From Sphagnum compactum (Eukaryota), in contig OZ234493.1 in NCBI GenBank assembly GCA_965153455.1, forward strand, positions 25,782,213 to 25,846,212: a stretch of 64,000 bases of DNA, given 5' to 3'. Positions 12,543 to 58,700 of the stretch are shown here, in pieces. Every line of letters begins with the position of its first letter. Position 1 is the stretch's first letter. Under the pieces are notes generated by a model. That model ran no database searches and had not been told where the DNA came from. It was given only the letters and a program-made list of their open reading frames with translations. Position numbers and translations under genes: made by a program.

Positions 12543-14062
12543 CTAAATTTGGGAAGCAGTAGCCAGACGACTGGCAGGTCGTTGAAGCCCCTTTGAGTTG
12601 GGTGGAGACATTGGAGAGCCCTGTTTAGCCAATTGTTTCCGTTTCTCCTCTCGCTTCAATCTACGCTCCTGCTCGAGCTCCTCTTTCCAGAGCCTTTGAC
12701 GCTCACGACGAGGGCTTGGTAGCGGTTGCTGTGCGTCATTAATAAGACCTTTCCATTCATTCAACCTTTGCTGACGGAATTTCCAAAAGAGGGGAACAAT
12801 TGACACTGGGAGAAGGTGCTCCAGTTCCACTGGTGCTCCCAGAACTCACGCTCGTCTCACTCTCTTGGCTGCTTCTCATTCCAATTGACCTTCCACTGAG
12901 ACCGCCCGGTGATTTGCTGGGGCTGTGCGTTTGTTGTTTCGCAATAGCAGGGTTCAAAGGTGCAATAAAGCTCTCTGGAGGCCCAGTTGATGCAGGAATT
13001 TCTGAGCTCCTCATTGAGGTCTCATAAAGTTCCTCATAGAGTGGTGTCCGGAGCCTTTTGAGCTCCAAAGCCTTCTCATCCAAGAAGGCACGAATCTTGG
13101 ATTCTGTCACTTCATCTTCCTCCTGCTGCTGCACAGACCATCCCCTCTCCCCGAGACTATGCTCACATTCTGGGGTCCCCATGCTTGCAAGATCTCCATT
13201 AGCAACAGGTCCTCCTACAGAGAACCCTCCATTCGCTGTCAGATGAAGCCTCCAGTTGTTGCCATCCACAAATGAGGGCTCTGACACCGGGTTCTAGCTT
13301 TCATTCCAAGTATCATGTTGGATAGAATCAAACCTTACAGAGTCCAACCTCACAGAACAATTAAGGTCGTCCATGTCTGAATTCCCAACCCTTCTGGAAG
13401 CCCCAGTTGATGTTATCAGAATTCTTCACCGAGTATGGGGAGCCTCTGAAAGAAAAGGATGAACCCATCCCAAGCACCCCAGTTGGCTTCCAGCTGTCCT
13501 GGCCAACCTGTCTCCATGTACCTTTCACAGATCGCAATTCTTTGTTTCCCCTATTTGCCTGCTGCTGCTGCAAATGACCATCAGCTGCGGCTTGTTGTTG
13601 TATGTCCTCAGAATCATCTAATCCTCCTTGATTCTCACAGGTGAGAACAAAGGTATGCTTCAGAAGCTCAGTTGCACTAGGCCTCAGTGTGGGCTCCATC
13701 TGGAGACACTTGAGGAGAAAATCCTTGCCTTGATGAGAAAGATGCTTAGGGGTGAGAGGGTGTGATTTGTAGTTCCAATGTGGAACAATGCAGCTACCTC
13801 TTGGAACTGCTGGCTCCAGGGAGGTTTACCAGTCGCCATTTCAATCACAGTGCAGCCAACACTCCACATATCAGCAGCCTGCCAGTTATGAACCGTCTGA
13901 CGAATGACCTCCGGAGCCATGCAGTAAGGGGTGCCTTTCATGGACTTGGCTTCAGAAATGGTTGCAAGTTTAACCACCTTTTTGGATGCACCAAAGTCTG
14001 CAAGCTTGATATATCCCTTGTTATCAACCAGGATGTTTGCCCCTTTGATTGATGTCACGATG
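12543..14062 (-). pseudogene. 5'-truncated NPK1/ANP-type MAPKKK pseudogene (intronless)
   Basis: HRDI (14062) + extra aatc + [21 protein letters not shown]...KGTPY.MAPEVI...[26 protein letters not shown]-terminal ESKIRAFLDEKALELKRLRTPLYEE and RERQRLWKEELEQE. Frameshifts near 14050, 13766, ~13400 and ~12765; stop at 13296-13294. The kinase N-lobe is absent. Confidence 0.9.
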
Positions 14063-14546
14063 CCAATTTGCAACCCTTTGGCCAATGTTGTAGCATTTAT
14101 TAGTAACTTGGGGCCAGACAAAAAGCCAAAAATGCTCAAAGTTGGCCCCAAGTTTTTTCAGCGCTGACTCCTATTGTAATGCGGGCCTTAGACTAAATCA
14201 GGGTGTCTGAGTTCAAATTTAACATTTCTTTGATGCCTCTTGGAGTTATTATTGGGGAAAGGAAGGGCTCATTCAAGAAGGTGAATGTATCAATGTAGGT
14301 GCAGGTTCAGCCTGGCCAATAATTACAGGCTTCCCCAATTCCTTCACAAACAACAGACTTGGTTGTGGGCACCATAACACGAAGCAAGTCAGAAAACCAA
14401 AAATCAGCAAAAACTTACTGGCTTTCACTAGGCTAAGGCCTCAGATCTGGGATCCAACATCTTTGCACTTCGCACCAGATGTCAATCGTGCTGACTGTGG
14501 TTCTGCACAGTAGGAGTCAAAAGTGTCTTGCAGTAAAACACCATTA

Positions 14547-15913: not shown

Positions 15914-16928
15914 CCGGTCCGCCCAAGGCCCAATGAATCATGCATTGCCCGCAACATTAGCTCTGGCAGAGCGCTTCAATAATGCACTGGGTGAAATCAG
16001 CCAACAGTAGGAAACGTGTGGATGAATAATTGTTTGGGTCAATTTTGAGATATAGCCAAAGTGCCTATCATCGGTAGGAAGATTAGTCAGATTAAGCTAT
16101 GAGCTAAATATGGCATTAGAAAATTTGAAACATATTTCTCTTATTTTTGGCTACCTACTTGAAAACCATGTAAGGAAATCTGACGATTTTTCTTTCAATT
16201 TGGATGAATTTTGGCTATTCAGAATCTCGAAAAGCATTCGATTTTAGCATTTTTTAGATTTATGACTTAGCTTTTTTTCAGCTTTAGTTTTTTGGTAAAA
16301 GAAAGGTTAGTGTGTGGATGTGAACAAAAGTCATGATGATAATAATGGAGGAGGCCAGAGGGAAAACGTAAAGCGCGTTTGACAAGTCTAAAGCTGACAT
16401 TGCATGTTCCATCCTCAATTATGAGTAGAAAATAGAGAGACGTGTTCCAGAAAAGAAAGTAATGAACTGTTCAGTGGCCAAGAAGAAATCGGTAAAGCGC
16501 GTATGCTAGAGTCTGAAGAGTCACGGCAAAACCCTTCTAGAAGTTTCTGGGCGAGGAGAAATTGAAGAAGAAGAAACATCTGCAAGAAAGGTCGAAAAGG
16601 AGTGAGAGAAGAAGTGTGAGAATTCCAGAGAGATCGTGAAGAGGAAAGGGGTGATGTTTTCTGGGGAGATCTAGTGGAAAGATCAGCTTAGCTTGCGGGA
16701 ATTTGTGATGTGAGGGACACCTATCATACCCTGTGTATGGTAATGGGATGGCAAAAGATTCGTAGCAGGTTTTATGGGACCAAAAGGTTAAGAGAAAAAT
16801 ATTTATGAGAGCAGTGAGCAAAAGAAATTTCAATAGTGCGAAATATGGGAAATTCAGATGACCTCAAGGGAAAAGGAGTTGATCTTTCACGAGGGCCACC
16901 AAAAAGAAAGAGAGATGTTGGGCGGATC

Positions 16929-17192
16929 CCTGCTGCGACTGAGACACCTTCGGTCCCCGCTGAAAATGCTCCTTCAAGCTCTGGATGGCACAGCAATGTG
17001 GTGCTTCTTCTTAATTTTATGATGAGCTTTCTTTGCACAGTTTTTTCTTGGGCTTTCTCATGTAAAGATATTGTGCAGATACCTGCTGCGATTGAGACAC
17101 CTTTGGTCCCTTCTGAAAATGCTCCTTCAAGCTCTGGATGGCACGGCAATGTGATGCTTTTTCTTACTCTTATGATGAGCTTTCTTTGCACA
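16929..17192 (+). repeat. 153-bp-period in-frame duplication in NLR exon 1
   Basis: PAATETPSVPAENAPSSSGWHSNVVLLLNFMMSFLCT is repeated as PAAIETPLVPSENAPSSSGWHGNVMLFLTLMMSFLCT. Confidence 0.85.
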
Positions 17193-20100
17193 CTTCCTTC
17201 TTCGGCTTCCCAAGTTACATGTTGAAGTTTGATTTTTCTTTGCTTTTTTAATTTTGTTTGGGTGTTGACAATTTTTCGTGACCCATACAACCACCATAGC
17301 TTATTGTCCTCACAAAGCATCAGGAGAAGGAGGTCTAGTTCAGATTTGAACTCCCAGCCAACAGCTTCGCAACCATACCCTTTAGCCATTAGGGTACCTG
17401 AATGTCCTCAATCATTTACATGTTTTCCTTGTCATACATTTTTACTTTGCTTACTTTCCAGTCTGGTTGTTTAGATAAAACAATATGAAATGATGTTTAA
17501 AAGAATGGAGTGATCATTTGGTCGGCAGCTCATTTGCTATAACAAGTAGAATTGGTGAAAGGGAAATTTGTCAAAATTTGGCATTAATTAAGAATATATT
17601 GAACTTGTAAGGATTGGAACTTTCATTATAGATTATGAGTTAAATTCAATGTGTACTCTTAATCCAACAACCTAAAGCAAATTATTAAAATGCTCTTGGA
17701 CATTCTAATTGGGTTTGTGTCCCAATTCCTTAGCCATCAAAGGCCTTAGAGGCCCAATTGTTGGGGAACATGTCATGAAATACAAGTGAACCAAACTAGA
17801 TGGCTCAGTTAATCAACCCAAACTTGAAAGAATCCAATTCTTAGCATTAACCTTTATTGTTTGGCATGCGTTCCACTTACTATGTAACAACATTTACTTA
17901 TTGAACTATGTTTTGAAGCTTTGAGGTCTATGACAAGAGAATGATCTTCATTTGTTAGTTATACAAAATAGATTTGGTATTCGCTGATTCATCTATTATT
18001 GTCATCTTGTTAAACTTAATCTCTTCAACTAATTATTGCCTTTATCTAACTACTATAATTTGTATATTGCATTTCTCTTATTTCATGTATAGTCAAATAA
18101 TTTCCAAGAAACATATGAAGCATTGTGTTGATTCGTTTTCATTTTCTTTGCAGAAATATCTAGTGCATGATTTAAATCCCACTTGTAATTCCAATAATCC
18201 AAACTTGACCATCGTTTTTTTTCATGGGATTGCTTTTGGCACGAATGATGAATGGAAGGAAACATGGACAACACGCCCCACCAACGATAGAGAAGAGTGC
18301 ATATGTTGGCCAGAAAAGTGGCTACCCGAAGACTTAAACAACAATGTTCCAATTTTATCATTGTCCTATGATTCTAACATTGTGGGAAGTGTTCACAATG
18401 ATGTGACTGAAATTGGTAAAAACCTCATTCAAAGTTTGTTTGCAAATTCAAGGTGTGACAATCTCCTCTATTAATGGACACATTAATTACTACTCCTTGT
18501 GTACATTAAAGCTAATTTTTTACACCTTTAAAAAAATTTACATGTTTTGCACAAGTTAATTGTTCATGTGTACTAGTATTGTGATACACACTAACAAGTT
18601 TCAATTTATTTGAATTGTTAGGTTCATGTAAGAGAACATAAAATGGGGCTTAAATGCAAATGTTTTTGTTTAAAAATAATAGCAAAGTCTATGTTCATAT
18701 TATAAGTTCATGGTACAACTAGTTTAGTTTTTATGACAATTTTTAGTTCGTGTTTTTTGAAGCTTTATCTTTGATAATGCAATTGAATTGAATTGAATTG
18801 AATTAATACATGTGTAGATAATTTTCATCCATTTCATTGCAAAAAAAAATTATTTGAAAAAATAGGGTATATATATATATTATTTTTAAAAATTTCAACT
18901 ATATTTCCAACGTAACACATAGAAGATGAGTTGTACATTAACAAAAAAGTGTACACACCTACATACTTGTGCATAATAATCGTTTTACCAAAACATGGTT
19001 GTCACATTTTCTAGGTAGATTAATGGAGTCAATAAACGAAAAATGACATAGGACAAGCAAATCAATTATGAACTTATGGCTTTGGTCATGTGTGAATTGG
19101 AAAATTGCCCCCAAGTATAATAGGATAACATTGTACATGCTAATACAATGTTGATAATGGAATTTTGGTGCATTGTTGAATATTTTGTAGATATCAATCC
19201 CTTTGGGATGGACCGGTGGCATTAGTTGCTTATAGTTTTGGAGGTCTTGTACTCAAAAGTTTAGTGGTTGAAGCTTACAAACATGTATATCAACGGCCAA
19301 AAAATGGTTTGGATGATGAAATACACAAATGTTGTAAAACATTTTTGAACAATGTCAAAGGTGTAATATTTTATGGTGTACCACATTCTGGTGGTACCCA
19401 AAATTTGTCAGAATATTTCAATTGGCAATATCAACAAATCAACACATTCAACAAATATTCTACCCAACCTAGTTTTTCAAGAAATATAGAACCTTTCAAC
19501 CAACAAATGGAATACCTCTCAAAGGCATTTAAAGATGCCGTTCATGAAGACCTCAACATTTATGCATTTGGCGAAGGATTACCACTCGACGAGAATTGGG
19601 TAAGATTTTCATTTCACCACATTGAAAGTTATCCAACAAGGTTCATTAGTTGAACATTTTTTGTATTGTCAAAACTTGTGTGGGATTATGTACTCAATAC
19701 TTCTGAATGTATTAATGTGGTGAATGGGTCATGTGTTTTATGAACTGTGTTTCATGAATTACTATTGATGGAAAGGAAATTTGATTGATCTCAAACATCA
19801 AGAAATAGGTTTAAATTTTCCCTTCATCAAATCAATTACATATAAATATTTTAAATGAAAATCATAACATCGTTAAAACATGTAAGATTCATGAGATTAA
19901 AAACCAATAACTTTGTGATGTATTTATATAAGTTGCTTACCAAAGGGTTGAAGGAAATTACGTGTACACAATATTTCATTTTATTCAAAGATCAATAGTT
20001 ATTAAGCTATAGTTTCCACCACCATTTAGCTTATAAGTTAAAGCATAAGTGACGAAACAAATCAATGAGTTCCGTTAACTTAATCTTTTGCACATGCAGG

Positions 20101-21889
20101 GAATTTTAGTGCCATATGTCTCAGCTATTCAGTTGTCAAACAACAACCATTACAAAATGGAGGATGCTAATCACTTGACAATCTGCAAGCCACCAAACAA
20201 AGTTCATCCAAGTTATTCTTTATTGTTAAATTGTTTGAGAATATGTATGAAGGTAAAAACATCAAATCTAATTCTTTTCACTTCATATATGTTCATGTAA
20301 TTTGATACACATTAGGTCATAACACACTTGATGTGTATAACATATGCAATGTCAGATATATTGGTTATCAAATACGAAAGATAACATATAAATGACCTAT
20401 ATTTTATGAATTTTGACAGAAAAATATATTGCTGCCACCGTTACCATGTCATGAGGTGGCGTTGATTGACAAAGCACAAGACATAAACATCTTGTTACAA
20501 CAGAAATCTATTGTTGGTTTGGTTGGAATGGGTGGGATTAGGAAGACGACTTTGAGCAACAAATTCTATCATATGTTCCACAACCAATATGATAAGTCTA
20601 GTTTTTTGGAGGATGTGAATTCAAAGGACAATATCAATGATGTCATAAAACAACTCCTACATGATTTGTGTGGCAAAAGGTTATGCAAAGATGAAAATGT
20701 GAATAAAGAAGACCTTGACAAAATTAGGCAATGTATGATATCAAAGAAAGTGTTGGTGGTGGTGGATAATGTTGGTAAGGAGGAGAACCTTACATCTTTG
20801 CCAATTTTCATTGATAAGGCTGCAAAAAATCCAATTTCTAAAAGCAGAGTACTTGTGAATTGTCGAAATTGGCAAAGTTTGGAATCTCATGTAAGTGAGG
20901 ATGGAAAAGTGGACATGAAACCTTTGGAGGAAAAGCAAGCAAGGGAACTATTTATGTTCCATGCATTGGGTAATGGAAATCATGTTCCAAGAAAAGATTT
21001 CAATGATATATGTATGAAGATTATAAAAGCTTGCGGGGGGCTCCCTTTAAGTCTTAAAGTATTGGGTTCTTTTTTGTGCAATACTAAAAATTTAAATCTG
21101 TGGGAAGGTGCATTGAACAAATTGAAAAGTGGGCAAAGTCTCACTGGGGGCAATGATAATGAAAAGCTTTGGAGTGTATTAAGGATTTCTTATGACCATT
21201 TGGATAAGCAACTTCAAGACATGTTTTTGGATATTGCTTGTTTTTTTGGTGGTTTGAAAATAAGTACAATTTGTCGAGCGTGGACGGGAAATTATGAATA
21301 CCCAAAGTTTGATTTACAAAATTTACAAGATAGATCTTTAATCCAATGGAAAGAAGGTGGATTCTTATACATACATGAACAATTACGAGACATGGGTCAG
21401 AGTATTGCAATGGAACCACCAATTATGAATCGATTTATATGGAAATCACATCAGTCAAATTATTTTTTGCAAAAGGATAAGGTTGTCATTATACTATTTC
21501 AATCCTATAATTTTATTTCAGTTTCCTATGATTTTTTGTTATGTCCGAAACCAAATGTTTTAGCTTTGAATTTTGATTTTATAAATATATGTTTTTTTTT
21601 TATAAAATTTGGCATTATGATGAAATGTTCTTTTACATTGATAATCCTTTTTGTTTTCATTTCATGTGATAGGTGGTGAAAAATTTAGAGGGCATTTCAT
21701 TGAAAAAATGTCTCAATTTGCCCCAAATCGACTCAAAGGGATTTCGCAACCTTAGGTTGGTTGACCTAACAGAGGCTTCACCAACTATTGTGGAAAATTG
21801 CATCCAAGGGCGAAATTTGAATAATGTTAAATGGTTATGCCTAAAAAACTGCATGATTCAAAAGTTGCCAAATAATTTATTTTATTGTT

Positions 21890-24800
21890 TACAATTACAA
21901 GTACTTGATTTGGCACAATGCCAAAGTTTGGAAGAAATACCTTCATCTATTGGCCAATTGAATGCACTCCAAGAGCTTGATTTGCGAAGGTGTTCCAACT
22001 TGAAAGAACTACCTTCATCTATTGACCAATTAAATGCACTCCAAGAGCTTAATTTGCGAGGGTGTTCCAACTTGAAAGAACTACCTTCATCTATTGGCCA
22101 ATTGAATGCACTCCAAAAATTTGATTTATCAGGGTGTTCCAATTTGAAAAAACTACCTTCATCTATTGGCCAATTGAATGCACTCCAAGGGCTTTATCTC
22201 TCACAGTGTTCCAATTTGAAAGAATTACCTTCATCTATTGGCCAATTGAATGCACTCCAAAAGCTTGATTTATGGGGGTGTTCCGAGTTGAAGGAACTAC
22301 CTTCATCTATTGGCCAATTAAATGCACTCCCAAAGCTTGATTTGCGAAAGTGCTCTAAGTTGAAAGAATTACCTTCATCTATTGGCCAATTGAATACACT
22401 TCAAAAGCTTAATTTGTGGAAATGTTCCGAGTTGAAAGAACTACCTTCATCTATTGGTCAATTGAATGCACTCCAAGAGCTTGATTTGCGCGGGTGTTCC
22501 GAGTTGAAAGAACTACCTTCATCTATTAGCCAATTGAATGCACTCCAAGGGCTTTATTTCTCACAGTGTTCCAATTTGAAAGAATTACCTTCATCTATTG
22601 GCCGATTGAATGCACTCCAAAAGCTTGATTTGTGGGGGTGTTCCAAGTTGAAAGAACTACCTTCATCTATTGGCCAATTAAATGCACTCCTAGAGCTTGA
22701 TTTGCGCGGGTGTTCCGAGTTGAAAGAACTACCTTCATCTATTGGCCAATTGAATGCATTTCGAAAGCTTGATTTGCGAAGGTGCTCTAAGTTGAAAGAA
22801 CTACCTTCATCTATTGACCAATTGAATGCACTTCAAAAGCTTGATTTGTGCGGGTGTTCCGAGTTGAAAAAACTACCTTCAACTATTGGCCAATTGAATG
22901 CACTCCAAAAGCTTGATTTGTCATGGTGTTGCAACTTGAAAGAACTACCTTCATCTATTGGCCAATTGAATGCACTCCAAGAGCTTGTTTTGGACGAGTG
23001 TTCCGAATTGAAAGAACTACCTTCATCTATTGGCCAATTGAATGCACTCCAAGAGCTTATTTTGCCCAGGTGTTCCAAGTTCAAAGAATTACCTTCATCT
23101 ATTGGCCAATTAAATGCACTTCAAAAGCTTAATTTGGGTTGGTGTTGCGAGTTGAAAGAATTACCTTCATCTATTGGCCAATTGAATGCACTTCAAAAGC
23201 TTGATTTGCACAGGTGTTCCAAGTTGAAAAAACTACCTTCATCTATTGGCCAATTGAATGCACTCCAAAAGCTTGATTTGCGCGGGTGTTCTGAGTTGAA
23301 AGAACTACCTCCATCTATTGGCCAATTGAATACACTCCAAGGGTTTTATTTGTCAGAGTGTTCTAATTTGAAAGAATTACCTTCATCTATTGGCCAATTG
23401 AATGCACTTCAAAAGCTTGATTTGTGGGGGTGTTCCAAGTTGAAAGAACTACCTTCATCTATTGGCCAATTGAATGCACTACAAAAGCTTGATTTGCACA
23501 GGTGTTCCGAGTTGAAAAAACTACCTTCATCTATTGGCCAATTGAATGCACTCCAAAAGCTTGATTTGCGCGGATGTTTCGAGTTGAAAGAATTACCTTC
23601 ATCTATTGGCCAATTGAATGCACTCCAAGGGCTTTATTTGTCATAGTGTTTTAATTTGAAAGAATTACCTTCATCTATTGGCCAATTGAATGCACTCCAA
23701 AAGCTTGATTTGTGGGGGTGTTCCGAGTTGAAAGAACTACCTTCATCTATTGGCTAATTAAATGCACTCCCAGAGCTTGATTTGCGAAGGTGTTCCAAGT
23801 TGAAAGAACTACATTCATCTATTGGCCAATTGAATGCACTCCAAGGGCTTTATTTGTCAAAGTGTTCCACTTTGAAAGAATTACCTTCATCTGTTGGCCA
23901 ATAGAATGCACTCCAGAAGTTTGATTTGTGTGAGTGTTCCGAGTTGAAAGAATTACCTTCATCTATTGGCTAATTAAATGCACTCCTAGAATCTGATTTG
24001 CGAAGGTGTTCCGAGTTGAAAGAACTACCTTCATCTATTGGCCAATTGAATGCATTTCGAAAGCTTGATTTGTGGGGGTGTTTCGAGTTGAAAAAACTAC
24101 CTTCATTTATTGGTCAATTGAATGCGTTCAAAAGCTTGATTTGGGTTGGTGTTCCGAGTTGAAAGAACTACCTTCATCTATTGGCCAATCGAATGCACTC
24201 CAAAAGCTTATTTTGCAGAGGTGTTTCGAGTTGAAAGAACTACCTTCATCTATTGGCCAACTGAATGCACTCCAAGAGCTTGTTTTGCAAAGGTGTTCCA
24301 AGTTGAAAAAACTACCTTCATCTATTGGCCAATTGAATGCACTTCAAAAGCTTGATTTGTGGGGGTGTTCCGAGTTCAAAGAATTACCTTCATCTATTGG
24401 CCAATTGAATGCATTCTAAGAGCTTGTTTTGCGCGGGTGTTCCAACTTGAAAGAAGTACTTTCATCTATTACCCAATTGAATGTACTCCAAAAGCTTGAT
24501 TTGTCAAGGTGTTCCGATTTGAAAAAACTACCTTTATGTATTGGCCAATTGAATGCACTCCGAAAGTTTGATTTACGAAGGTGTTCTGAGTTGAAAAAAC
24601 TACCTTCATCTATTGGCCAATTGAATGCACTCCAAGGGCTTTATTTGTCACGGTGTTCCAATTTGAAAGAATTACCTTCATTTGTTGCCCAATTAAATGT
24701 ACTCCAAAAGCTTGATTTGTGGGGGTGTTCTAAATTAAAAGAACTACCTTCATCTATTGGCCGATTGAATACACTCCAAAAGTTTGATTTGCGAAGGTGT

Positions 24801-25620
24801 TCCAAGTTGAAAGAAATACCTTCATCTATTGGCCAATTGAATGCACTCCGAAAGCTTTATTTGGTAGGGTGTTCCAAGTTGAAAAAACTACTTTCATTTA
24901 TTGGCCAATTGAATGCACTCCAAGGGCTTTATTTGTCACGGTGCTCCAATATGAAAGAATTACCTTCATCTATTGGCCAATTGAATGCACTCCAAAAAAT
25001 TTATTTAGTAGGGTGTTCCAACTTGGAAGAACTACCTTCATCTATTGGCCAATTGAATGCACTCCAAAATCTTTATTTGGTAGGGTGTTCCAAGTTGAAA
25101 GAACTACCTTCATTTATTGGCCAATTGAATGCACTTCAAGAGCTTAATTTGTCAGGGTGTTCTAACTATCTTCATTTATTGGCTAATTGAATGCGCTCCA
25201 AAAGTTTTATTTGTCAAAGCGTTGCAACTTGAAACAACTACCTTCATCTATTGGCCAATTGAATGCAATCCAAATTTTTATTTGTAAGACTTCTATTTGA
25301 AAGCATCGTGAAAAAAATACATTCATCTATGAATGAATTGAATGCACTCAAAGTGTTTCATTTGTCAAGGTGTTTCAATTTGAAATAATTAGTTTCATCT
25401 ATTGGTCATTGAGTGCACTTATCTATCTTGATTTGTGTAAATGCTTCAATTTGCAAGAATTACTTACATGTACATTGGCCAATTAAATGCACTCCAAAAG
25501 TTTTAGTTGTGAGAGCTTAATTTGTATGAGCTTATAAGAATTATTTACGTTTATTCGCTAATTTAATGCATTCAACGAACTTAATTTGTTAGGGTGTTTC
25601 AATTTGAGATAATTACTTTC
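21890..25620 (+). repeat. 72-bp tandem LRR array, ~47 clear units plus a few degenerate ones
   Basis: Unit LQxLxLxxCSxLKELPSSIGQLNA; the core ccttcatctattggccaattgaatgcactccaa recurs every 72 nt. Confidence 0.97.
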
Positions 25621-28600
25621 AGCATCCATTGTCAACTATATCACTAATAGAAAACCCTTTTTATTCAACCAACTCGCTTTCAACTTGATGACATCTTTGA
25701 CTACATTTCAATTGTAATTTTTGAATATTTAAAAAAATTATTGATAATTTCCAAGTAAATTGAACTGCCTATTCTTTTGGTGGACAAATGAAAGTGAATC
25801 CCAAATATTTTGGAGCTCATGGAATATTCTTAACACCCCATGGTCTACAATTGAATTCTAGTTAAAATGTTGACTTAAAAATTTACATAGTCTATAGTCA
25901 AACCTCTCGGGGTGATGTGTCCCATGTTCAACTACTTTGGTCAATTACAAAACATAGTGATGGATGAATCACACATGGATGGATGACATTGAGATTGGGA
26001 TTAATGTCTTCGTTGCAAGTGCATAGCAAGATTATCTCTCGACTATGACTATAAGTTGAAAGGCAAAAAATGAATGTTGAGCAGTCTTACATATTTTATG
26101 TCGACACCTCAATTGCAAATGCTACGTAGTAAACATGACAACAACCATTGTGTCATGCTCTACAAACATTGGTATATAGGCATGGTTCTAGTTTTAAGAA
26201 ACAAATATTTATTGAGGTTGTCAAAGCCAACAAAGTCATAATGATGAAAATATGTTTTTTCTTTTTGAAAAACCCCAACAGCTAGATTTTGAAAACTATC
26301 AAGTTATTTGATGACTTGTCAAAAACATTCAAATCCTAGATTCTGCGATAGATGGTGGGCAAAAATGATTCAGCATCCAAGAAAACATTATTCACATCAG
26401 GATGTGACCTTTCACCCAGCTCTTTATTAAAAGACATTTGGCATTGAGAAAAATTTAACATAATAAAACTAGTTTTCTCTATACTTCAATGCATGAGAAA
26501 ATATATATGGACAAGGATAGCTTGATGCCCAAGAAAAGAAAGGATCTTTTCATCAATAGAAACATTGTCACTAGTAGAAAAAGGCTAAAACATAACCAAA
26601 TGATTTGTGATTACATGCGACTAATTGTCATTTACAACTAACATTGGTTACATTTGTTACTGAAAATCATATCACACATTTTTGGTCACATTTATGACTA
26701 TGTTGCAACTATTTATAGGTTTTTCATTCTTCCAATGAGATGATTTTTCATGTTGTTTTCCTCTTAGAAGGCCTTCGTATGGCGCATTAGTTACAAAAGT
26801 GACCAAAAAATGATAATTAATATTTATTTATACATTAAGTTATGTATGTTACTAATTTTGTATAGGGTAAGTCGTGTTTTATGTCATGGTAACTAACAAT
26901 TATGTATAATAAACCTTATGTATACATTATGTACTCCAGAATCATAATGATATATATATATGTATTATTCTCGTGGATTAATTAGGCATGGTTTGAAAAA
27001 TATATATTTTTTTATTACCTCATATTAGGGTATATGTAAAGATGACGATACATCAATCATCCATAGGTGTATAAAAAACAAATACAATAACTATCATAGA
27101 ATTATTGTGATTAAATTAATTGCCAAAAAAAAATAAAAAAAATATTTAGAACTTAAAGTCTAAAATTAAAATTCATTTAAATCTTTTTACATTAAATTAA
27201 TGTCATTATCATCATTATTGTCAAATAATATATCTATTATTTTTAATTACTTATTACAATAAATCATTATTCTTCCAACATAAAAATTTGGAAATTTGAT
27301 TATTGAAATTTACAAATGTTAAAAATTAACTAAAAATTATATATAACATGTAATTGCACTTAGTAATAATATTGATAATTGATAATTTTAATTAACATTT
27401 TCAATTCTAATGGTAATTATACTATAATGTGAATAATTAACATATTTATTGTAATTAAAGTAATTGAATAATAATAAGTTATTGCTATGTAGAACCTATA
27501 ATGTTTTATTTAAAGTGAATAGTTATTATTACAACAATAATTTTTACATTAAAATTTTAATACTTTTACACAATTATAAAAATTATAAAAATGATAGTAA
27601 CTTGATTTTAATCAAATTAATTATTGTAAAAAAATTATTTAATTATTTAAGAGTATTCTAATAAATAATCGTATAATATTTAAACTACTTATACGTTAGA
27701 AATTATAATTAAATTGGATCTAAATTTTTTTAATAATTATATTGTAATTAGAGTAATGAATGTAATTATTGTAAATTATTGTGTTTCTAGCTTAAAATTA
27801 CTTATTTATGGTTAACAATTATTAGCATTACAAAATATTCACATTTTTACAATAATAAAAATTAATTACTACAATTGTAATAATTTAATGAAAGTTCATC
27901 ATTATATGTTTGGTGCATATTTTTTGAATTTCATCTTTATGTGCATATTCTTATTCAAATTAGCAATTTCAATTTCTATATGTTTTTGTCACGTTGATGG
28001 TTTCACCATATGTTTATGACATTTGAATATAATACAATATGTAGAAAATAAAATGTGATGAGAAAATGAACCACCCTATCTTAAAACTACCCCACATGTC
28101 ATCTTTGTGAATTGTCATTTAGTTGCAATAATTTATTGACAATCTCTTTCGAGCATACTTATGACCCTTGGTGTATAGGAGAATACACACAACTTTGTCC
28201 GGTTGTGTTGTTCCTTTTTGTGACGCCATCCTTATTACAAATTGGTGTGCAACTTGGGGTTTAAAGTTAGATTCCAAAGATGTTCAAGGAAGGGTGGGCA
28301 TGAAAATGGAAGCGAATATGGTATAATCACTCCCAATGGAAACACCCAACATTTCGTTTCAAACATATGAAACATACTTTTGGATACATTTTGTTGTTTA
28401 CATGTTTATGTTATTTATTTGCATTCATTTGTGTGCCTTATTTCAAGATCTATGGTTTTCAAGAATCAAATTTCCATTGTTCTTTCTTAGTCTTTAATCT
28501 TGATGCACATGAATTAGTCTAGTTCAGTGAGTCTTAGTTTCTTGTTAAATATCATCCTTGATGAATTTCTTACATACACGTGGTCAAGATCAATTAGTGC

Positions 28601-33659: not shown

Positions 33660-35190
33660 TTTTCATTAATTTAAACTATTTCACCCTACATTATTTACGG
33701 CTATTTATGGCTATTCTCAATTACTTTTGGTCATTTTTTGCTATTTCACCCTAGACTACTTTTGGTTATTTTAAGTTATTTTTGGCTATTTTAGCTTATT
33801 TCACCTTAGGCTATTTTCGGCTATTATAAGTTTTTGTGGCTATTTTATGTTTTTTTTGCTATTGTAAATTATTTTAATTTAAGCTATTTATAGCTATTAT
33901 AAGTTATTTTTGGCTATTGAAGGCTATTTCACCTTAAGTTATTTTTGTCTATTATAAATTATTTCACCCTATATTATTTTTGGCAATCCTAAACATTTCT
34001 AATATATGGCTATTGGTTATTCTTTTATTAGGGTTATTGGATATTATTTTATTGATGGCTATTAATGCCTATTAGTGGTTATTCTATTAATAATTATTGA
34101 TTGCTCTTTTATTATTGGCCATTGTTAATTATTCTATTGGTGGCTATTGGTGCTATTCTATTAATGGCTATTGGTGGTTATTCTATTGGTGGCCATTGGT
34201 GGTTATTCTATTGGTGGTTATTCTATTGGTGGCTATCGGTGGCTATTCTATTAATGGCTATTGGTGGTTATTCTATTGGTGGCTATCGGTGGCTATTCTA
34301 TTAATGGCTATTGGTGGTTATTCTATTGGTGACTATTGGTGGCTATTCTATTAATGACTATTGGTGGCTACTCTATTAATGGCTATTGATGGATATTCTA
34401 TTGATGAATATTGATGCTTATTAATGGTTACTATATTAGTGACTATTGGTGGTTATTCTATTGGTGGATATTGGTGCTTATTAATGGTTATTATATTAGT
34501 GACTATTGGTGGTTATTTTATTGATGGGTATTAATTGGTATTATATTAATGGTTATTGGTGGCTATTATATTAATGGCTATTAGTGGATATTTTGTTATT
34601 GGATATTTTGTTATTGGATATTGGTGGTTATTAATGGTTATCGTATTAGTAGCTATTGGTGGCTATTTTATTAATGGCTATTAGTGAATATTTTATTGTG
34701 GATATTGGTGGTTATTAATGTTATTATAATAGTGGCTATTGGTGAATATTCTATTGTGGATATTGGTGGTTATTAATGTTATTATATTAGTGGCTATTGG
34801 TGATTATTAATGTTATTATATTAGTGGCTATTGGTGGCTATTAATGTTATCATATTAATGGCTATTAGTGGTTATTATCTTAATGGTTATTGATGGATAT
34901 TTTATTGGTGGATATTGGTGGTTATTAATGTTATTATATAAATGGCTATTGGTGGTTATTAGCAGTTATTCCATTGTAAGCTATTGGTGGTTATTTTATT
35001 GGTGGTTATTGATGGCTATTTTATTAATGCTAATTAATGGTTATTATATTATAAATTATTATTGGTTATTATATGTTATATTATAATTATTGGTGATTAT
35101 TGTATTATAAATTATTGTTGGATATTCTATGTTATAATATCATAGGCTATTGGTAGCTATTATATTGTAAGGTATTTTAAATTATTTTTC
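33660..35190. repeat. Degenerate minisatellite / low-complexity array (ggctatt / ggtggttattctattaat motifs)
   Basis: ctattt-caccct subunits (33660-33990) grade into ggctattggtggttattctatt subunits (34000-35190). The overlapping W/Y/G-rich ORFs are artefacts. Confidence 0.9.
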
Positions 35191-47475: not shown

Positions 47476-50400
47476 ATGGCTAAAAGGGGTAGTATGCTGG
47501 CAGCTGTGGCGCAGGCATGGCATGCCTACGCTCTGCAGGCCACAATTGCAATAAACTCTTCTGTAATCGTGTCATCATCATCGGGCAGCGAGAAGCATGG
47601 ATCTGGGTTAGAGAGCATGGAGTTTGCAACTAGTGTGCGAGTGCTGTGCGACCAAGGCTTGGCTCATCTGGTTCTAAGTTACTTCCTCGACGCCCTGGAG
47701 GTATATGTTATATATATCATTCGGAAAGATTGTCTGAATGGGTATCACGAAAGCTCCGAGAACCGAACCCTAAAGGAGATATATGGTTATATGATTATGC
47801 AAGCGATAATCTTTTGCACAATCTTTTGCTAGTGTATGGTAGCTTTAGAAGCAGTTGCTGCAGCAGAGAAACCAAAGGCTAGACCTGTGCTCTTTGCATT
47901 GTGCATACATGTAGGGTTTAGGGTTTAGGGACATTCTGACTGAGAATCTCTGGGGCCTCTGGCAAAATGTCTTGGGGGGGGGGTGTTTGGGGTTGGGGAT
48001 TTGCAGAGGACGTTCAAGCAGCAGCAGGTGTCCAAGCTGTGGCAACAATTGGATCCTTATTTTGTATTGAACCAAGATGATGCGGCCAGCAATGCTAAAG
48101 CAAGTGCGCTGAGTCTTTTTTCTGAATTTCATATCTCCTAGCAACAACAGAAATATGACACAAATGTGGAAGAATGTGGCATCCATCTTGGTGCAGGATG
48201 GTTCTTAACATCAGAGGCATGTTGTTTTGTAAAATATACATATGTATGTCTATGTGATTATTTCACTGCACTTTCAATTCTTTACCTCATGTTGCACGTA
48301 TCTGGTGATGGATGGACAAATGTCTCTGTCCAGCCAGGTTAAATTGTGTGAAACCAAGATGCATGAAGGATGCTACTTCAAAACTGTTCTGTCATCTTAC
48401 AAATGTTGTAGGTCAAGAGTAGTGTGAGAAGTTGTAAGTCAGGATTATTCTGTAGATTCAACATTGCCACATTTTCAAGTGTTTTAACTTGCGGTTTAGA
48501 CCTAGTGGTTATATTAGACTTCAAATTCCCAGAGGACTGTTGTATGAAGTGCAAGTTTTGCTCTTCCGGTTTCAACAAAGAAGTTTGTTCCAGTTTTTTT
48601 CAAAAATGTAGTCACATTCTTGTCAAAGCTATGGTTGCTTTGCCTCTGAATGAGGTTTGTTCACAGCTCTTTATATGTCGTAGAATTCAGAGTTGTTGGA
48701 TTGGAAGGGGTGAAGAGGAATTTGCCCAGTGATCTGCTTGTTTCAAAGCTTGATGGACCTTGGAATGGTGTAGGGTTTTGCCATACAGCCTTTTGGCTCA
48801 TGAATGGCAGGATGGAAATTGATGGGACCCTTTGGCGTGATGCAGCTGAATGACTGGGTGCAAGCTACACTTCCCAAAGTGCTGGCAGAGGTATCTGAAG
48901 CCAAGCTTGCACAAGAGACGCTTCTGGCAACACTGGCTGGAATTATACATCGAGGTGGTAATGGAGTGGCCTGTGATGCTGAAGGCTTGCTTTCAAGATA
49001 CCACACTGCTGTTAGTGCGCTCCTCCTCACCAGTGCCCCACATCATTTCTCAGGTGACATTGTTTTGGCCTCAGCTCTCTTCTGCCCCCATGTGCCACTA
49101 TCAGCTGTCACCTACAGGGACACCCTGTCTTGTATTTGAAGAGTAGTTTTCTTGTTCCTCATTTCTCTGGTTTCTTTGGACATGCAGAGGTTTTGAATCT
49201 CTACTTCAAGGGGCAATTGGACGAGTTCAGCAAGGTCGTGAAGCAACGCAACCACAGTCCACAGGGTAGCTATGTGACTGATGAAAATGCAGATGGTTCC
49301 AATGCAAGCCCTGATTACAGCAGTGGGGAAGATGATGAAATGGATGTTGCCCTCAGCAGTCATCACACATCTGTGTATGCTGATGAGATGGATATCAATG
49401 GGAGTTCACATGGCAGTCGAAGGGCTATGAACTTGAATGATTCAGATGGAGTTCGAGACATGGAACTCACTGATTATGTGACAAACAGTGAGTTGAAGCT
49501 CAGTGTGGGTGCAGCAAGCATTTATGAGGTGGTAACTGTTGCAGGTGAAGATTGGGTGGCTGGTGTGGGTTCTGTTGTCAATCACCTTCGCCATCTTGGG
49601 TTTGCTGCCATGAGTGAGGAGGGATATGCTTCTGCTATCTACTCCCTTTTGAAGGTGTGTCTTCTTGTATCACTTTGTAGCGCTTGTAGTAGTGTTGAGT
49701 ATTATGTAGCTGGCATCAGTTTTTGTACATGATCAGGTCTAGATTGCAGTCATCATGCAGCTCTGCACAGTTGAGGAGCTACCTGGCTGTTGCTTGCAAG
49801 GTAATTCTGGTACTGGTTGTGTCACTTTGTGTTTGAGAAGGTGGCACAAAAGTCACAGTTGGGTAAAGGCTTTGAACTTGTCTTGTTATGCAGGTGAAAA
49901 TCCATGGTATAGCAAACAAGCGCTATGAAAAGCCTGTGCTTGGTCCCATTCGGCGCTGGATTGAGGTCAGTCTAGTTTACTCTAACTATCTGGTCACTCT
50001 ATATTCAGGGGCTGCCTAAATCCTTAGTATCTTCCAAATCGACTGTACTAGGATTTGCATGGATGTTATTGAAATGTATTAAATTTTGCACATATTGGCG
50101 ATGGGAGAGTTGTATTTGTTGTCCTGTGTTGTTTGATGGAGGTTGGTCACTCCACATGGTTTCTCCTCCAAAGAGCTTGCTCTTAAAGTTCTGTATCTTG
50201 TTGCTCTGTCTTTCTTCCTTCCTTGTTTGGGGTCTTCTTCCTCTCTTTTAGATTTTGTTGAGCTAGCCTGCATTACGGCTGAGTTTTCCTATCACTGCCA
50301 CTCTTGTGACAGAAAGTCAGTATGTTGGAAAATATCATGGCAAGTATCAAGTATCTAGTATCAAGACAGTAGTGGTTTTGTGAACAGGCTGTTCCACTGC

Positions 50401-53400
50401 AGTTTCTGTCTGTCATGCTGGCAGCTTCAGGAACTCCGTCTCATTTCACCAAGACTTCTCCATCTGCATTTCCCTCACCCCTGACTTCAACACCAGTACT
50501 TGCTTCTGGAGCTGATAAAACTGTCGCAGAAAGAGTTATCAGGTGGCGATTACGGCTGCAGTTTTTTGCTTATGAGACCCTTGGTGACTTACGGATTAGT
50601 GAGCTTTTTGACATTATTGTTGACTACCCAGAGAGGTGAACTCTTTGTTCTTGTAGATGGTATCTTGTTACTTGAACCTGCAGTATAGGGTTCCAATATT
50701 GCTGATTAGGTAAGAACAGATAGGTTTGTCTCAAATTTCAGGAATGTTGAGGGCAACAGCATTCAGAGTTTTGCTCCTGTTAGATATATCGGTGGTTCTA
50801 GATATGAAACCACCAAATTGCAAAGGCAGTACATGGTTTTTCATGTCTACATGTTCAGCCTTCCATTATGTGAGATCCTTGAACTTGGATGTGTATGGTG
50901 CAGCATAGCAGCAATAGAGGACTTGCGGCAGTGTTTGGCTAATACAGGCCACCATGCTAAGCTGGTGGAGTCATTTCGTACAGCACTGCGGCAACGGCTA
51001 CTGACAGCAGGAGCAGCAACCACAGACATTTTACTGCAGTACGTTTCAACCATCAAAGCTCTGCGAACAATGGATCCCACAGGTGTGGTCTTGGAAGCTG
51101 TAGCAGAGCCCATCAAAGAATATCTACGGGGCCGCAAGGACACAATACGGTGCATTGTGACAATGTTGACCGATGACACAGGTGTGAGTGGGTCGTCAGG
51201 ACTGGGTGGAGCAGGTGAGAGCCTTTTTGAAGAACTAAGCCGTGGTGTAACTGCACTTGAGAATGCTGACAGTGATGAGGATGGTGATGGAGATGGTGAT
51301 GAGGCTTGGGCTGCTGCTGAGCGGTATGTACCTTTCTCCTTTTGACTGTGTGGTAACCATTTTTTCCAACTTATTTTCTCACTCCCTTGTTTCTCTTTGT
51401 TTGCTAATTTGGAATCGCTTATATAGTATAACACTGGATCTCCTTGTTGTTGTGATCAGCTGACCTTGTGACATCCAGCTTCTCTTGTGATTCAGATGGG
51501 AACCTGACCCTGTGGAAGCAGATCCATCACGCACAAGTAAGAGTCGAAGGTTAATGGATATCATAAGCATGCTTGTTGGTATCTATGGTTCAAAGGAGCT
51601 GTTTGTAAATGAGTATCGAGTTATGCTGGCTGAGAAGCTGCTGAACAAGTCAGACTATGATACTGACCGTGATATTCGCACGCTGGAACTGCTCAAGGTC
51701 AATAAAAGCATTCTTCTTTTCTTCTGCATGGTTTGTTGTCTAAGTTGTAGAGAACATCACTGTTGATATGCGCAATTGAAATTTTCTTCTTTGCTGATAT
51801 TTTTGGAGACAAAATCTAGCGATGGTGTGATATAGGATTGATAGATTCAAGGTTGCAGGTTGTACATATCTTTATGTTGTGTTGTACATATTCTTGGAAG
51901 TTCTTACCCATATGCTTGCTATGACAAAATCAGCTGCGATTTGGTGAGAGCAATATGCATGGATGTGAAATCATGTTGAAGGATGTGGCAGACTCCAAGC
52001 GCATTAACTCCAATATCAAGGCCTCAGCTGCAGCAGCTGGTCTTAATCAACGTGCTCCTTTTCCTGCCCCTGCACTTCCTGCTACTACAGGTGCTGCTGC
52101 ATTTCTTGGGGCAGCCCCTGCTATTGCAACAAACAACTCTTCTCCAGTTCTGCCATTGAGAGTCACTGAGACTTCATGGACCACAGCCATGCAAGGCCTT
52201 AGACCACAGAGTGTTGATGCAGCTATATCAAAAGGAGACCAGCAACTACCCCTGGAGGTCTTGGATGCAACTATTATTTCATCTCTCTTTTGGCCTCCAT
52301 TCCAGGTGACTCCTCATGAAATTTTCACCCAAACTTCTATGGGGGTGGGGACCAAGCTACTGCAAAAATTGTCTCAGCTGGGGCAGTGGAAAATCTGTGG
52401 AATAGTGGTACCTCTGGAAAGATCAGCCTACACTTGGGACCCAGCAGTCCAGTCCAGTCGGTCAATTTGGTGTATAAGATGGATCAATTATGGGAGTGCC
52501 ATAAACCCTAAACCCTAAACCCTAATCTGTTGGTTTCTGGCGCTCTATCAGCAGGAAGTTTGAAACAGTTCTAAAGTCCAGAATGCCTCACTTTATGACT
52601 GTGGATGTAGCTGTGCTTTCCATTCTCAAGTAGACATGATGTTATCCTTGGATTTACTTTGCTCACAAAGCTTGGATGTGGTACAGGCAGAGACACTGAA
52701 GGTTCCTGCAGTGGTCGAGCAGTTACTGGATGATTATGCTCAGCGTTATCATGCACTGAAAGCACCTCGCAAGCTTCAGTGGCGGAAACACTTGGGAACT
52801 GTTAAGGTCTTTTTGCTAACCTTCCTCTCATCTGCCTCCAACAAAAGGCTCCTGAAAGGAAAAGCAATTGATTTCTCAGAAGAATGGACTGGGCAACTAC
52901 ATTTATTCTGCCTTGAGATATTGCTCCAGGATGTCATTGTGGTACTTCTGTTGTCATCTGCTCCATACCCCTCATTGCTTACCGTGTGAATGGCTCTCTT
53001 GTACAATGTGCGTTGGTTAGCTGGAGCTACAATTTGAGGATCGGTCAGCTCAATTTGTGGTATCACCAATGCATGCAGCGATTATCATGCAGTTTGAAGC
53101 TCAGCCAAGGTGTGTTCCTTGCTCTTTTACCTTGTGCTGGTTCTGGACATCTTGCATCTTGTGTCAGTTCCAGACATGTTCCAGACATAGATGAATCTGT
53201 GATTAAATTTCAGGATTGTGTTTGTCAATTACCCACAGTGTTGCTTCATGAGAATGCTTGGTTGGTCTGGCTGATGCACGTTGTGGTTGTGAGAACCATA
53301 TGTGTTGGTTGTGGAGTGACTGCAAAGGTAGTTGAATTGTGACAATTTTTGAACTGTGTCATAGATGGACAGCAGCAGAGCTAGCAGAAGCAGTTGGTGT

Positions 53401-55775: not shown

Positions 55776-58700
55776 GGCTTGAGTGAACCAGCACCCACCA
55801 TTGCACTAGTTGTGGATGAGACTGTTTTGGCTGTTTTGGGATGAACCCAAACCATTTAACCTAAACCAAACCAAAGATTGAAGTGAGATATTTTTTTCAT
55901 TTCAGCGGCCCAACCGTCGTTGAGATTTCAAAAAAATTTCCCCCTTCTTTTCCCTCCTCCTCCTTCTGCTTCTCCTCTTTTGTTCTTTCTTTCTTCTTCT
56001 TCTCTTTGTTCTTTCTTTGTTCTTATTTTCTTCCACCATCATCTTGTCTTCCACTATTGTTGTTGTAGCTTTTTCTTCATCATTTTTTTCCCTCTTGTTT
56101 TTATTGCTATTGTTACTATTAGTTTTTCTTTTCTTTGGTTTGTGCTATAGATTTTTTTTCTTTCATTTTTGTTGCTACTTCAAATTTTTTATTTACAATC
56201 TTTTGTTTCTTTGTTTTCCTTTATTGTTATAACTTTTTCATCATTTCCTTTTTTTTTTTTTTTTTGGTTTTCTTTCTCTCTTCAAGCATTTTCTTTCTTT
56301 TTCATGACATCGTTGCGCTTGTTGCATCATCATTAGGTATACATATCACGCAAGATATGCTTTTATCCTTTTCCTTGTTTTTTTTGTTTTGGTTTGAAAG
56401 TAAAGCAAAAAGGAAAAGTAAGAAAAAGAAAAAGAAGAGGACAATAGTAAAAGAGAAGGAAATGGAAATAAAAAAATAAAGACAATGAAAAGAAAAAAAA
56501 TAGAAGACAAAGACTATTTTTGTATTTTTCCTTGTTTTTCTGTTTTTTTCTACTTTTAAAATTTTAGAAGAAGTTTGTTTTTGTTTTTTTTTCCTTTTTT
56601 TGTTTTTTCTTGAAGATTTTTTTTTCTTCTTATTGTTAATTCAAGAAGAAAAATTCTAGTTTTTGTTTCATGTTCATTGTTTTGTTTTCCTTTTTCTTTT
56701 TTTGTTTATTTAAGAATAAAAGATTTTTCAGGTTTTTTGCTTTATTTTTCCATTTTTTCTGTTTTCGAAATGTTAAGAGATTTTTTTTCTTTTACTATGT
56801 TTGTCCTAAATATTTCTTTTGTTTTCACCCTACTTTTCCATTCCTTTTGGTCTTCAAAATTCCAAAAAACGAAGTTTGTTTTTATATTTCCTTTATTTCT
56901 TATTTTCAATTCTTTTTCCAATTTTTCTTTAAATTTTTTTTCAGTAGACTTATATGTTCATACCCATGTAATTTTTTGGGGTTTGGTTTATATTTATCAA
57001 ATTTGCATAATAATGTGTATTATGTGTTTAAAGTAAACTTTGAATAACTATGAAATACCAATTTGTAACCAATACATTCAATTCCAATTGTATCACTATC
57101 AACTTTACATTCATCAACATGTTATTAAAATGGTTATAACAACAAGAATTTATCGATGTACACATGATATGGTGGGTAATGAAAGTAGGTTTACAAATGT
57201 GTCTCTTAAGGTTAGAAAGTAGCATGCATATCTTAAGTTTTTTTGCAATAAACAAGAACATGGAATTCATGTTTTTCATTTTTTGGGCATTTAAAAAAGT
57301 TTTGATAATGTGAAACTTGCATCAATAGATACAAGTTTTGTTTTATTGCAATTGTAACTTCATGTTTGTATTATGTTTGCATGCTTTGAATGTGAGCATT
57401 GCATTAATATTTTGTTAAAATTTTCCTTAAAAATACGAGTTTGAAATATATGACAATGTTGCATTATTGCATTAAAAGAACTTCAAAAATATAAAGTTCA
57501 ATGTGAAATACTTCCATAAGGGTCACAAAATAAACATTAGTTTTGTTAGAATGATTTTATAATATTCACATTTGAAGCATAAAATGTTAGTTGGTTTTTT
57601 TGGATGTTTGTGCAATACCCAAATGTTGGGCATAATATGCATGTTCAATCAAAAAAATGATTATGATAAAAAAAATAGAAAAGATGAAAAAAAAAAAATA
57701 ATTGTGATAAATAAAAGAAGAAAGTAATTTAGAATTTTTTTTAAAAAGAAGAAGGAATTAAAAAAATTAGAAAAAAAAGACATAGAAAAATAATTAAAAA
57801 AATCCAAAATCCGAAAGAAAAAAGAATGTTTACATTTTGGTCACAAACATAATTATTGAGGTGTATTGTATTTGAAATGACATTGTTTTCATATGTGGGT
57901 ATTGTATTTTGTGATTAGATTTTCAGCTATTTTAACTTTTAAATATTAACCACCAAAATATGCAACACCTATGTGTGGGTCATAAAAGTTGATCGAATGT
58001 GCAATACTTGCATTTAGGGTTACCTTTTATTGACATCAAGGGGCCAATTTATGATTAAATTGGTTGCTAGTTCATTTAACGCAATACCATCATATTTTGT
58101 ATATCATACATTGACAAACATTAACATCATGTAAATGATAGGTAGGTAGGTGAGTGGGGGTGGTAGGTAAATAAATATGTAAGTAGGTTGGTGGCTAAGT
58201 AGGTAGGTATGTACACAAATAAAAAATAAGTTAAGTCAAATAATGTAATTATGTCAATAAAATGGTTAGGTCAATAGGGTAACCAAAAGTTTTAAAAAAA
58301 GATTTTGTTGAAAAAGTAATCTTTAAGTTGATTAAAAAAAAAGGTTAAAAAAAAAAAATTAACCAAGAAAAGATAGAGTTTTTGCCAACAAGTAGAAGTT
58401 TAGCAATGAAGAGATGGAAGTTTTGCCAAAAGATATAGGTTTAGCTAATAAAAATTCAAAGTTTTTTCCAATTTGTAAAGGTTTAACCAAGAAGAGATGG
58501 AGGTTTACTAAGAGGTAAAAGTTCTTCCAATTTGTAAAGGTTTAACCAAGAAGAGATGGAGGTTTACTAAGAGGTAAAAGTTCTTCCAATTTGTAAAGGT
58601 TTAACCAAGAAGAGATGGAGGTTTACTAAGAGGTAAAAGTTCTTTCAATTTGTAAAGCTTTAACCAAGAAGAAATGGAGGTTTACTAAGAGGTAAAAGTT

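Follow-up and report, generated by a model that had tools for sequence, protein, structure and literature searches.

A 64,000-nucleotide stretch of the Sphagnum compactum genome, here called the window, carries a tandem array of 72-bp units that makes up the leucine-rich repeat (LRR) exon in a hydrolase-NB-ARC-LRR gene of Sphagnum. The array is a real feature, confirmed in the sequence. It is likely that it represents the sensor domain of a hydrolase-NLR belonging to an expanded family, in which the LRR arrays evolve like coding minisatellites. The family consists of repeat-shuffled NLRs of high internal conservation and is unusual in the length of its arrays and in its number of genes.

Regular LRR units in the window

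We traced the units by alignment walking and obtained 47 in-register units between positions 21895 and 25267, in agreement with the roughly 47 units of 72 bp that a first-pass annotation of the sequence had proposed and with Tandem Repeats Finder (period 72, 46.6 copies, score 4346). Of these, 45 measured 72 bp, whereas unit 32 had 71 bp and unit 46 had 62 bp. Coding units had the consensus LQKLDLRGCSELKELPSSIGQLNA. Nucleotide identity among units 2 to 24 averaged 0.865 (range, 0.764 to 0.972). The annotation had called the units nearly identical even at synonymous sites; this was true of codons 16 to 19, 21, 23, and 24, and the 3′ third of the unit was almost invariant, but it was not true of the framework overall, where pS was 0.15.

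Entropy among units 2 to 24 peaked at position 7 (2.54 bits), followed by positions 8 (2.23), 5 (1.56), 11 (1.55), and 3 (1.32), and was at most 0.77 bits at every other position. These maxima coincide with the five variable residues, x1 to x5, recognized at first reading, and the 26 residue pairs then listed for positions 7 and 8 were matched exactly. Their proposed placement on or next to the exposed face is consistent with the motif: positions 3, 5, 7, and 8 are classical xxLxLxx sites, for which diversifying selection is standard among plant R genes (PMC3113787), and the pair at positions 7 and 8 is the last xx of that motif. A single-sequence structural model of the N-terminal cap and 14 units (pLDDT 94) placed a strand at positions 3 to 5 and a helix at the invariant positions 17 to 21. 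A fold search returned ordinary LRR solenoids only, RPP1 among them. By established LRR geometry, positions 3, 5, 7, 8, and 11 would form one continuous stripe running from the concave face to the flank.

Table 1. Features of the window gene and its array
Feature	Positions	Strand	Basis
Coding exon, first part found of the alpha/beta-hydrolase domain	18154..18452	+	AG/GT boundaries, open frame
Coding exon, hydrolase core with AYSFGG motif	19191..19599	+	78% identity to P0004 residues 152-285
Coding exon, end of hydrolase domain	20100..20252	+	Open frame; upstream intron spliced in RNA contigs
Exon with NB-ARC and ROQ1-like winged helix	20420..21481	+	PF00931 E 1.3e-29, PF23282 E 8.7e-11
P-loop codon AGG (Arg), Gly in the family	20540..20542	+	GIRKTT in 1/60 core loci
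Irregular N-terminal LRR cap, start of LRR exon	21673..21894	+	AG boundary, frame; model of 21823-22902
Array, coding part: units 1-24, 72 bp/24 aa each, lesion-free	21895..23622	+	0.57 framework amino acid changes per unit
Array, noncoding tail: units 25-47	23623..25267	+	First stop TAG 23644-23646; further lesions
Four strongly decayed terminal units	25268..25570 (end approximate)	+	Similar irregular ends common to closest paralogs

The gene carrying the array

Five exons with GT-AG boundaries gave a continuous open frame, 1298 residues long, up to the stop in unit 25 (Table 1). The frame is counted from exon 18154..18452, the first found; a start codon or upstream exon was not located. Single hydrolase exons, searched alone, gave no Pfam match. 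The related Sphagnum protein P0004 matched the Pfam DUF676 serine esterase family at residues 118 to 246, above the curated cut-off, and similarity to P0004 predicts for the window gene the N-terminal alpha/beta-hydrolase domain that characterizes HNL/Hyd-NLR proteins. We take the AYSFGG motif of exon 19191..19599 to be the nucleophile elbow. The NB-ARC domain is followed by LRRs, as in that class, and for a relative of the window gene, P0072, ROQ1 was the nearest among solved structures. The named close homologues were Sphagnum proteins from several species, so that the window gene can be regarded as a peat-moss hydrolase-NLR.

In RNA contigs from members of the family, the intron after exon 18154..18452 was skipped. 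The GT-AG intron at 19600-20099 was skipped in RNA contigs from two studies and retained in both DNA runs. Because the first two introns were skipped in RNA but not in DNA, the gene family is transcribed and spliced; the RNA contigs pile up across paralogs, so this evidence applies to the family and is not assignable to the window copy.

Bryophyte hydrolase-NLRs, including Sphagnum members, have been described before (PMC3352924, PMC11218826). The window gene shares with them the order hydrolase-NB-ARC-LRR and may also share a phase-0 intron between hydrolase and NB and an intron behind the NB. At least two introns interrupt its hydrolase domain; the pattern given in PMC3352924 places a single phase-0 intron in the hydrolase, a second, also of phase 0, ahead of the NB, and a third behind it. 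The phases in the window gene, derived from exon lengths only and unaligned to the Marchantia genes, were 2 and 0 within the hydrolase, 0 before the NB, and 0 behind it. The available portions of both accounts, which concern N-terminal domains and introns, do not mention homogenized LRR arrays, nor does the available portion of a review of moss-pathogen interactions (PMC11850516).

An expanded family with polar lesions

A search of the S. compactum genome with the NB-ARC domain yielded 124 matches. We examined 79 of them: every near-full match at 75% or more but a single broken one, and a sample of the others. Arrays of this type were present at 77 of 80 loci, the window included, and this is a lower bound given that 79 of the 124 matches were examined. 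No array of this type was found at L108 to L110, which are NB-ARC relatives at 38 to 41%, or in the extension L090. The arrays, at least 77 in number, held 3,126 units, with 9 to 109 units per gene (median, 40). Spacings of 71 bp recurred in many arrays, and some of these may be base-calling errors.

Lesions were common and were distributed along a gradient. The share of units affected rose from 2.6% in the first decile of the array to 59% in the last, and 61 of the 77 arrays had a lesion ahead of their last 4 units. The median number of units before the first lesion was 19 per array, and the longest intact leads comprised 57, 60, 70, and 89 units. With the last 4 units excluded, the lesion-free lead was 20.7 units, compared with 12.6 in shuffles. 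In 28 of the 77 arrays, at least two interior units had an identical stop codon in the same place.

Among the 95 best database relatives, 48 had runs of at least five regular units with the same variable sites; some of the 95 probably come from this same genome and are not independent. The longest regular run, of 20 units, was in an S. fallax model, and standard gene models probably miss most arrays of this family.

An assembly artefact in the length, lesions, or unit order of the array has a very slight probability. Although the reads analyzed formed short-read contigs, none spanning the array, and the recurrent 71-bp spacings may partly reflect base-calling errors, no two units were identical (0 of 1,128 pairs among the first 48 units compared), which makes assembly expansion unlikely. 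Further arguments against an artefact are the clean frame over 24 units, the polarity of the lesions, and the finding that annotated proteins from other Sphagnum species share this consensus and its variable sites, in runs of up to 20 units.

Damage in the window copy

The first-pass annotation had marked one stop, in unit 25. That stop is present, but it is followed by others in units 26, 28, 29, 36, and 46, by a 1-bp deletion in unit 32, and by a 10-bp deletion in unit 46, so that only 24 of the 47 units are coding. Were seven lesions scattered randomly over 47 units, the probability of finding none before unit 25 would be 0.004 (0.012 by a stricter count). Framework amino acid changes numbered 0.57 per unit in the front and 1.57 in units 25 to 45. 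The contrast between front and tail in both lesions and framework suggests that selection continued to act on the front once it had been lifted from the tail.

The P-loop of the window copy reads GMGGIRKTT, compared with GMGGIGKTT in 51 of the 60 core-clade loci. Every short-read contig covering position 20540 (four runs) had the family base G, and the private bases of the window copy were absent at the best-supported listed sites in contigs of 4 of the 24 listed runs. The copy thus lacks the combination of an intact P-loop, GxxxxGK, and a full-length LRR frame. The stop in unit 25 and the P-loop substitution indicate that it is most likely recently disabled or noncanonical. It would have been cut to 24 repeats, with a front that was probably selected for some time.

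Amino acid change is favored at exposed positions

We tested for selection in the 35 of 60 core loci with at least 10 coding units, excluding 25 shorter ones and always omitting unit 1. Neutral rates were taken from framework synonymous sites, and one event was counted per changed codon along spanning trees of the units, which approximate their history. The a priori xxLxLxx set comprised unit positions 2, 3, 5, 7, and 8. Across the pooled core arrays, amino acid change at these positions was 2.10 times the expectation corrected for the mutation spectrum, and the ratio of observed to expected change exceeded 1 in all 35 arrays (range, 1.16 to 6.47). In the window copy, 36 changes were observed versus 17.5 expected; 16 arrays of the sister clade gave a pooled ratio of 1.95. 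By site, the ratio was 2.77 at positions 3 and 5, 1.85 at positions 7 and 8, and 1.75 at position 11, while framework amino acid change was 0.56 of expectation. Because paralogs share ancestry, the 35 arrays are not independent and Poisson P values are overstated.

Synonymous change at the xxLxLxx codons was 0.67 of expectation. A local mutation hotspot, which we considered, was ruled out, since synonymous change at the variable codons was not raised. At the five variable codons, plain pairwise ratios came to about 1.1; in the framework, they were 0.3 to 0.5. Such Nei-Gojobori ratios are too weak because codon differences of several bases inflate pS and because mutation rates depend on context, with a spread of about 20-fold (C>T at CG, 0.13; A>C, 0.006). 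Noncoding tails had a comparable excess at positions 7 and 8 (ratio 1.55 versus 1.45); this excess is probably inherited, yet it is a caution for the reading of selection.

These values bear on an alternative that we regard as unlikely, in which the arrays, lengthened through slippage and conversion, are mostly neutral coding minisatellites of a dying family whose exposed sites tolerate change and have little role in recognition. Such an account fits the lesions in most copies (a median of 19 coding units against a median of 40), the recurrence of stops inside the tails of 28 of the 77 arrays, the pairwise ratios of only about 1.1 at variable codons, and the P-loop change in the window copy. 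Tolerance alone, however, predicts a ratio near 1, and neutral simulations of conversion at 0.80 to 0.92 unit identity gave 0.78 to 1.06 in all 16 runs, as against the 2.1 observed. A spectrum consisting only of neutral C>T and G>A changes, which the first-pass annotation had named as evidence against its own proposal, was not found either: single changes of these kinds accounted for 299 of the 1,454 changes at the five variable codons. Purification of the framework (0.56), the polarity of lesions (2.6% to 59%, with leads of 20.7 units versus 12.6 in shuffles), and intact leads of up to 57 to 89 units likewise speak against a neutral origin. Statistically, the data show that amino acid change is favored at the exposed positions 3, 5, 7, 8, and 11, and that it is selected against in the core and on the helix side. 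The family has, in other words, the few hypervariable positions under diversifying selection that define high-internal-conservation NLRs.

Units are reshuffled within genes

We compared unit number and order across paralogs, a comparison suggested in the first-pass annotation, and both proved to change quickly. The three closest paralogs, with 96.6 to 97.3% DNA identity in the NB-ARC, had 64, 39, and 31 units and were colinear with the window gene only over units 1 to 3 and, in two of them, over the last few units. Unit number was unequal in all 16 reciprocal-nearest paralog pairs, and 15 of these pairs were colinear for no more than five units from the 5′ end. The pair L047 and L051, with flanks 99.6% identical, had units 1 to 17 and the last 3 in common, while the block between them had been replaced; units 18 to 21 of L047 are a copy of its own units 5 to 8. 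Within genes, we found 74 near-identical blocks of several units in 29 of 77 arrays, at offsets of 1 to 76 units. These comparisons showed misaligned copying within genes, by which blocks of units are duplicated, lost, or overwritten. Shuffling, along with the gain and loss of repeats, is a further defining feature of high-internal-conservation NLRs and occurs both between paralogs and within genes.

Colinear near-identical blocks between distant paralogs were not found. All 14 between-gene blocks joined close genes, closeness being judged by NB-ARC identity for 9 of the 14 and by flanks or clade for the others (identity was calculated except where the NB-ARC match was partial). Among the units examined, identical single units were shared only between the close neighbors L047, L051, and L087.

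The repeated identical stops within arrays indicate that copying probably continues in the tails. They suggest that it goes on there without a coding purpose, with recurrent mutation as the alternative. In 16 of 23 arrays, there were unit pairs differing by at most 1 nucleotide whose members lay on opposite sides of the first lesion (96 of 11,392 pairs). Such lead-tail pairs were rarer than lead-lead pairs (0.8% versus 1.7%) and were absent in the window copy. Within units, the number of arrays positive in the four-gamete test ranged with the site pair from 6 of 33 to 22 of 29, a result that recurrent mutation could also produce.

TAL effectors combine near-identical tandem repeats and adjacent variable residues with a small closed RVD alphabet that constitutes a DNA code. 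The Sphagnum array resembles them in its near-identical tandem repeats and adjacent variable residues, a likeness on which the first-pass annotation had remarked. It is very unlikely, in our estimation, that the array is a code of the TALE or PPR type in which residues 7 and 8 of every unit recognize a single element of a polymeric ligand and units behind the first stop serve as donors for conversion of the coding front, possibly somatically. The near-invariant scaffold, the very long arrays, the near-identical lead-tail pairs of 16 of the 23 arrays, and the recombination of variable sites within units would suit such a code. However, the fold is that of an ordinary LRR solenoid, unlike that of TAL effectors, and the alphabet is open: the pair at positions 7 and 8 took 127 states in 1,005 units, the top four making up 39%. 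Four to five positions vary jointly, at least five being variable in all, and the excess at positions 3 and 5 is no smaller than that at positions 7 and 8, so that the comparison with RVDs does not hold. The tails also carry more framework damage than the leads in most arrays, and lead-tail pairs are rarer than lead-lead pairs, although this would be expected if the stop were recent.

A related and distinctly improbable possibility is a quasi-adaptive repertoire in which conversion rewrites the stripe within a few generations, stops tune its length, and silent units donate sequence. If this were true, Sphagnum would possess dozens of hydrolase-NLRs with LRR arrays of up to about 90 coding units whose stripe is rewritten, perhaps even between shoots of one clone.

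Under the reading that we favor, a hydrolase-NLR sensor evolving like a coding minisatellite, the copying engine would be ordinary unequal crossing-over or gene conversion. Copying of blocks keeps the scaffold uniform and scrambles the middle units, while the end units stay anchored. The variable stripe may bind microbial proteins or other non-self ligands, each rearrangement of the array thereby trying a new binding surface, and binding would switch the NB-ARC, which would in turn activate the N-terminal hydrolase. The price of such copying is frequent truncation and gene death.

Comparison with known repeat-shuffled receptors

The fungal high-internal-conservation NLRs are the closest working model. 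Fungal NLRs of this design have near-identical repeats with four hypervariable positions and undergo repeat shuffling, and the design is stated to occur in plants too, the main text naming no moss example (PMC13449251). Podospora HET-E, HET-D, and NWD proteins share with the Sphagnum family highly similar sensor repeats with few diversifying positions, repeat gain, loss, and shuffling, and many pseudogenes (PMC4986451, PMC13449251). The Sphagnum family differs in having LRRs rather than WD40, ANK, or TPR repeats, an NB-ARC with a hydrolase effector, and at least 77 loci with up to 109 units. Podospora, moreover, is reported to exchange repeats between distant paralogs (PMC4986451, PMC13449251), whereas among the Sphagnum loci compared we found no multi-unit block shared in this way. 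Mean identity to the consensus over units 1 to 24, a proxy for repeat similarity obtained without T-REKS, was 0.847, which passes the Psim threshold of at least 0.7 (PMC13449251) and is borderline for that of 0.85 (PMC4986451).

In plants, the tomato Cf-2/Cf-5 (Hcr2) proteins have 25 to 38 LRRs of 24 residues and undergo intragenic recombination (PMC7468133, PMC10515242). Like the Sphagnum proteins, they are plant immune receptors with variable numbers of 24-residue LRRs and repetition at the nucleotide level; unlike them, they are extracellular receptor-like proteins of a small family with proven specificities. Repeat-shuffled receptors are thus already known from fungi and tomato, and what sets the Sphagnum family apart is its scale. 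In the literature searched, whose coverage was limited and did not extend to the supplement of PMC13449251, we found no account of the Sphagnum arrays.

Seed-plant TIR-NLRs and Ceratodon NLRs have repeats of the form LxxLxLxxCxxLxxLPxSIGxL with variable sites at positions 3, 5, 7, and 8, as in Sphagnum. Regular runs occurred in proteins of Eucalyptus (P0174, 11 units at 80%), Cryptomeria (P0130, 9 units at 79%), and Arabidopsis (P0173, 12 units at 67%); the Vitis protein P0122, named RUN1, reached 96% at a 71-residue period, and Ceratodon P0113 had 23 units and 89% at a 48-residue period. Seed-plant and Ceratodon runs are shorter and often built of two- or three-repeat blocks, while the Sphagnum arrays are 72-bp monomers on a far larger scale. 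Regular 24-residue arrays are therefore not exclusive to bryophytes, and the contrast drawn at first with angiosperms is one of degree. The interpretation offered in the first-pass annotation is partly supported: its core, a recombination-diversified, internally conserved LRR domain with an amino acid excess on the exposed face, is upheld.

Implications for plant NLR specificity

The window gene is a damaged copy whose main value is as an entry point to its family. The specificity of plant NLRs has usually been studied in irregular LRRs, whose repeats are not comparable with one another. Thousands of in-register units on one scaffold amount to a natural library that allows sequence, selection, and rearrangement to be measured for each repeat, and swaps of repeats can readily be designed on this scaffold. 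The Sphagnum family extends the fungal model of high internal conservation to a clade of plant NLRs, and on a large scale.

Sequence context of the window NLR gene

The 153-bp duplication listed in the table precedes the first exon found for the hydrolase-NB-ARC-LRR gene by about 1 kb. Because the loose end of an RNA contig at position 18153 is similar to the sequence of this duplication, a missing upstream exon of the NLR gene may lie within it. Farther upstream, the kinase domain of a protein-kinase gene remnant, which may resemble the NPK1/ANP MAPKKKs, is divided between two overlapping frames (13361-13825 and 13684-14157), and this split suggests a frameshifted, intron-poor copy. Downstream of the NLR gene, the kilobase at 27001-28000 is very AT rich (16.6% GC), and the strand-skewed satellite, where the GC skew is +0.55 at 34 to 35 kb, is probably repeat or transposon-end DNA.

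Features of the window and array loci elsewhere in the S. compactum genome (G000)
Feature	Position	Strand	Details
Protein-kinase gene remnant	window 12757-14157	-	Pkinase match
153-bp duplication	window 16913-17208	+	1.9 copies, 88%
Strand-skewed satellite	window 33700-35150		periods 15/25/50 bp
Exons of APC2-like gene (anaphase-promoting complex subunit 2)	window 49058-52518	+	TPR_ANAPC2 match 50710-51342
59-bp tandem array, then degenerate 19-20-bp array	window 58458-59501		59-bp array 7.2 copies, 95%
Exact 66-bp duplication	window 62657-62789
L059 array	L059:1525-9450 (G000:C8:18039700-18049699)		109 units
L066 array	L066:1507-8782 (G000:C1:36943700-36953699)		100 units

Giant arrays and related moss proteins

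The Sphagnum protein model P0001 contains two NB-ARC and two winged-helix stretches, a double set produced either by a tandem fusion or by the merging of gene models.

Among the arrays found, the one at the paralogous locus L059 was the longest; it contains large internal block duplications, and unit 23 carries one stop, behind which about 80 units are free of lesions such as stops or deletions. At the paralogous locus L066, 89 units were free of such lesions, and this locus is the most promising candidate for a giant LRR receptor that is still intact. Four Ceratodon NLRs (P0113, P0116, P0119, and P0120) carry runs of 14 to 23 units with a 48-residue (two-repeat) period and 81 to 90% conservation, a design parallel to that of the Sphagnum arrays in a different moss lineage.
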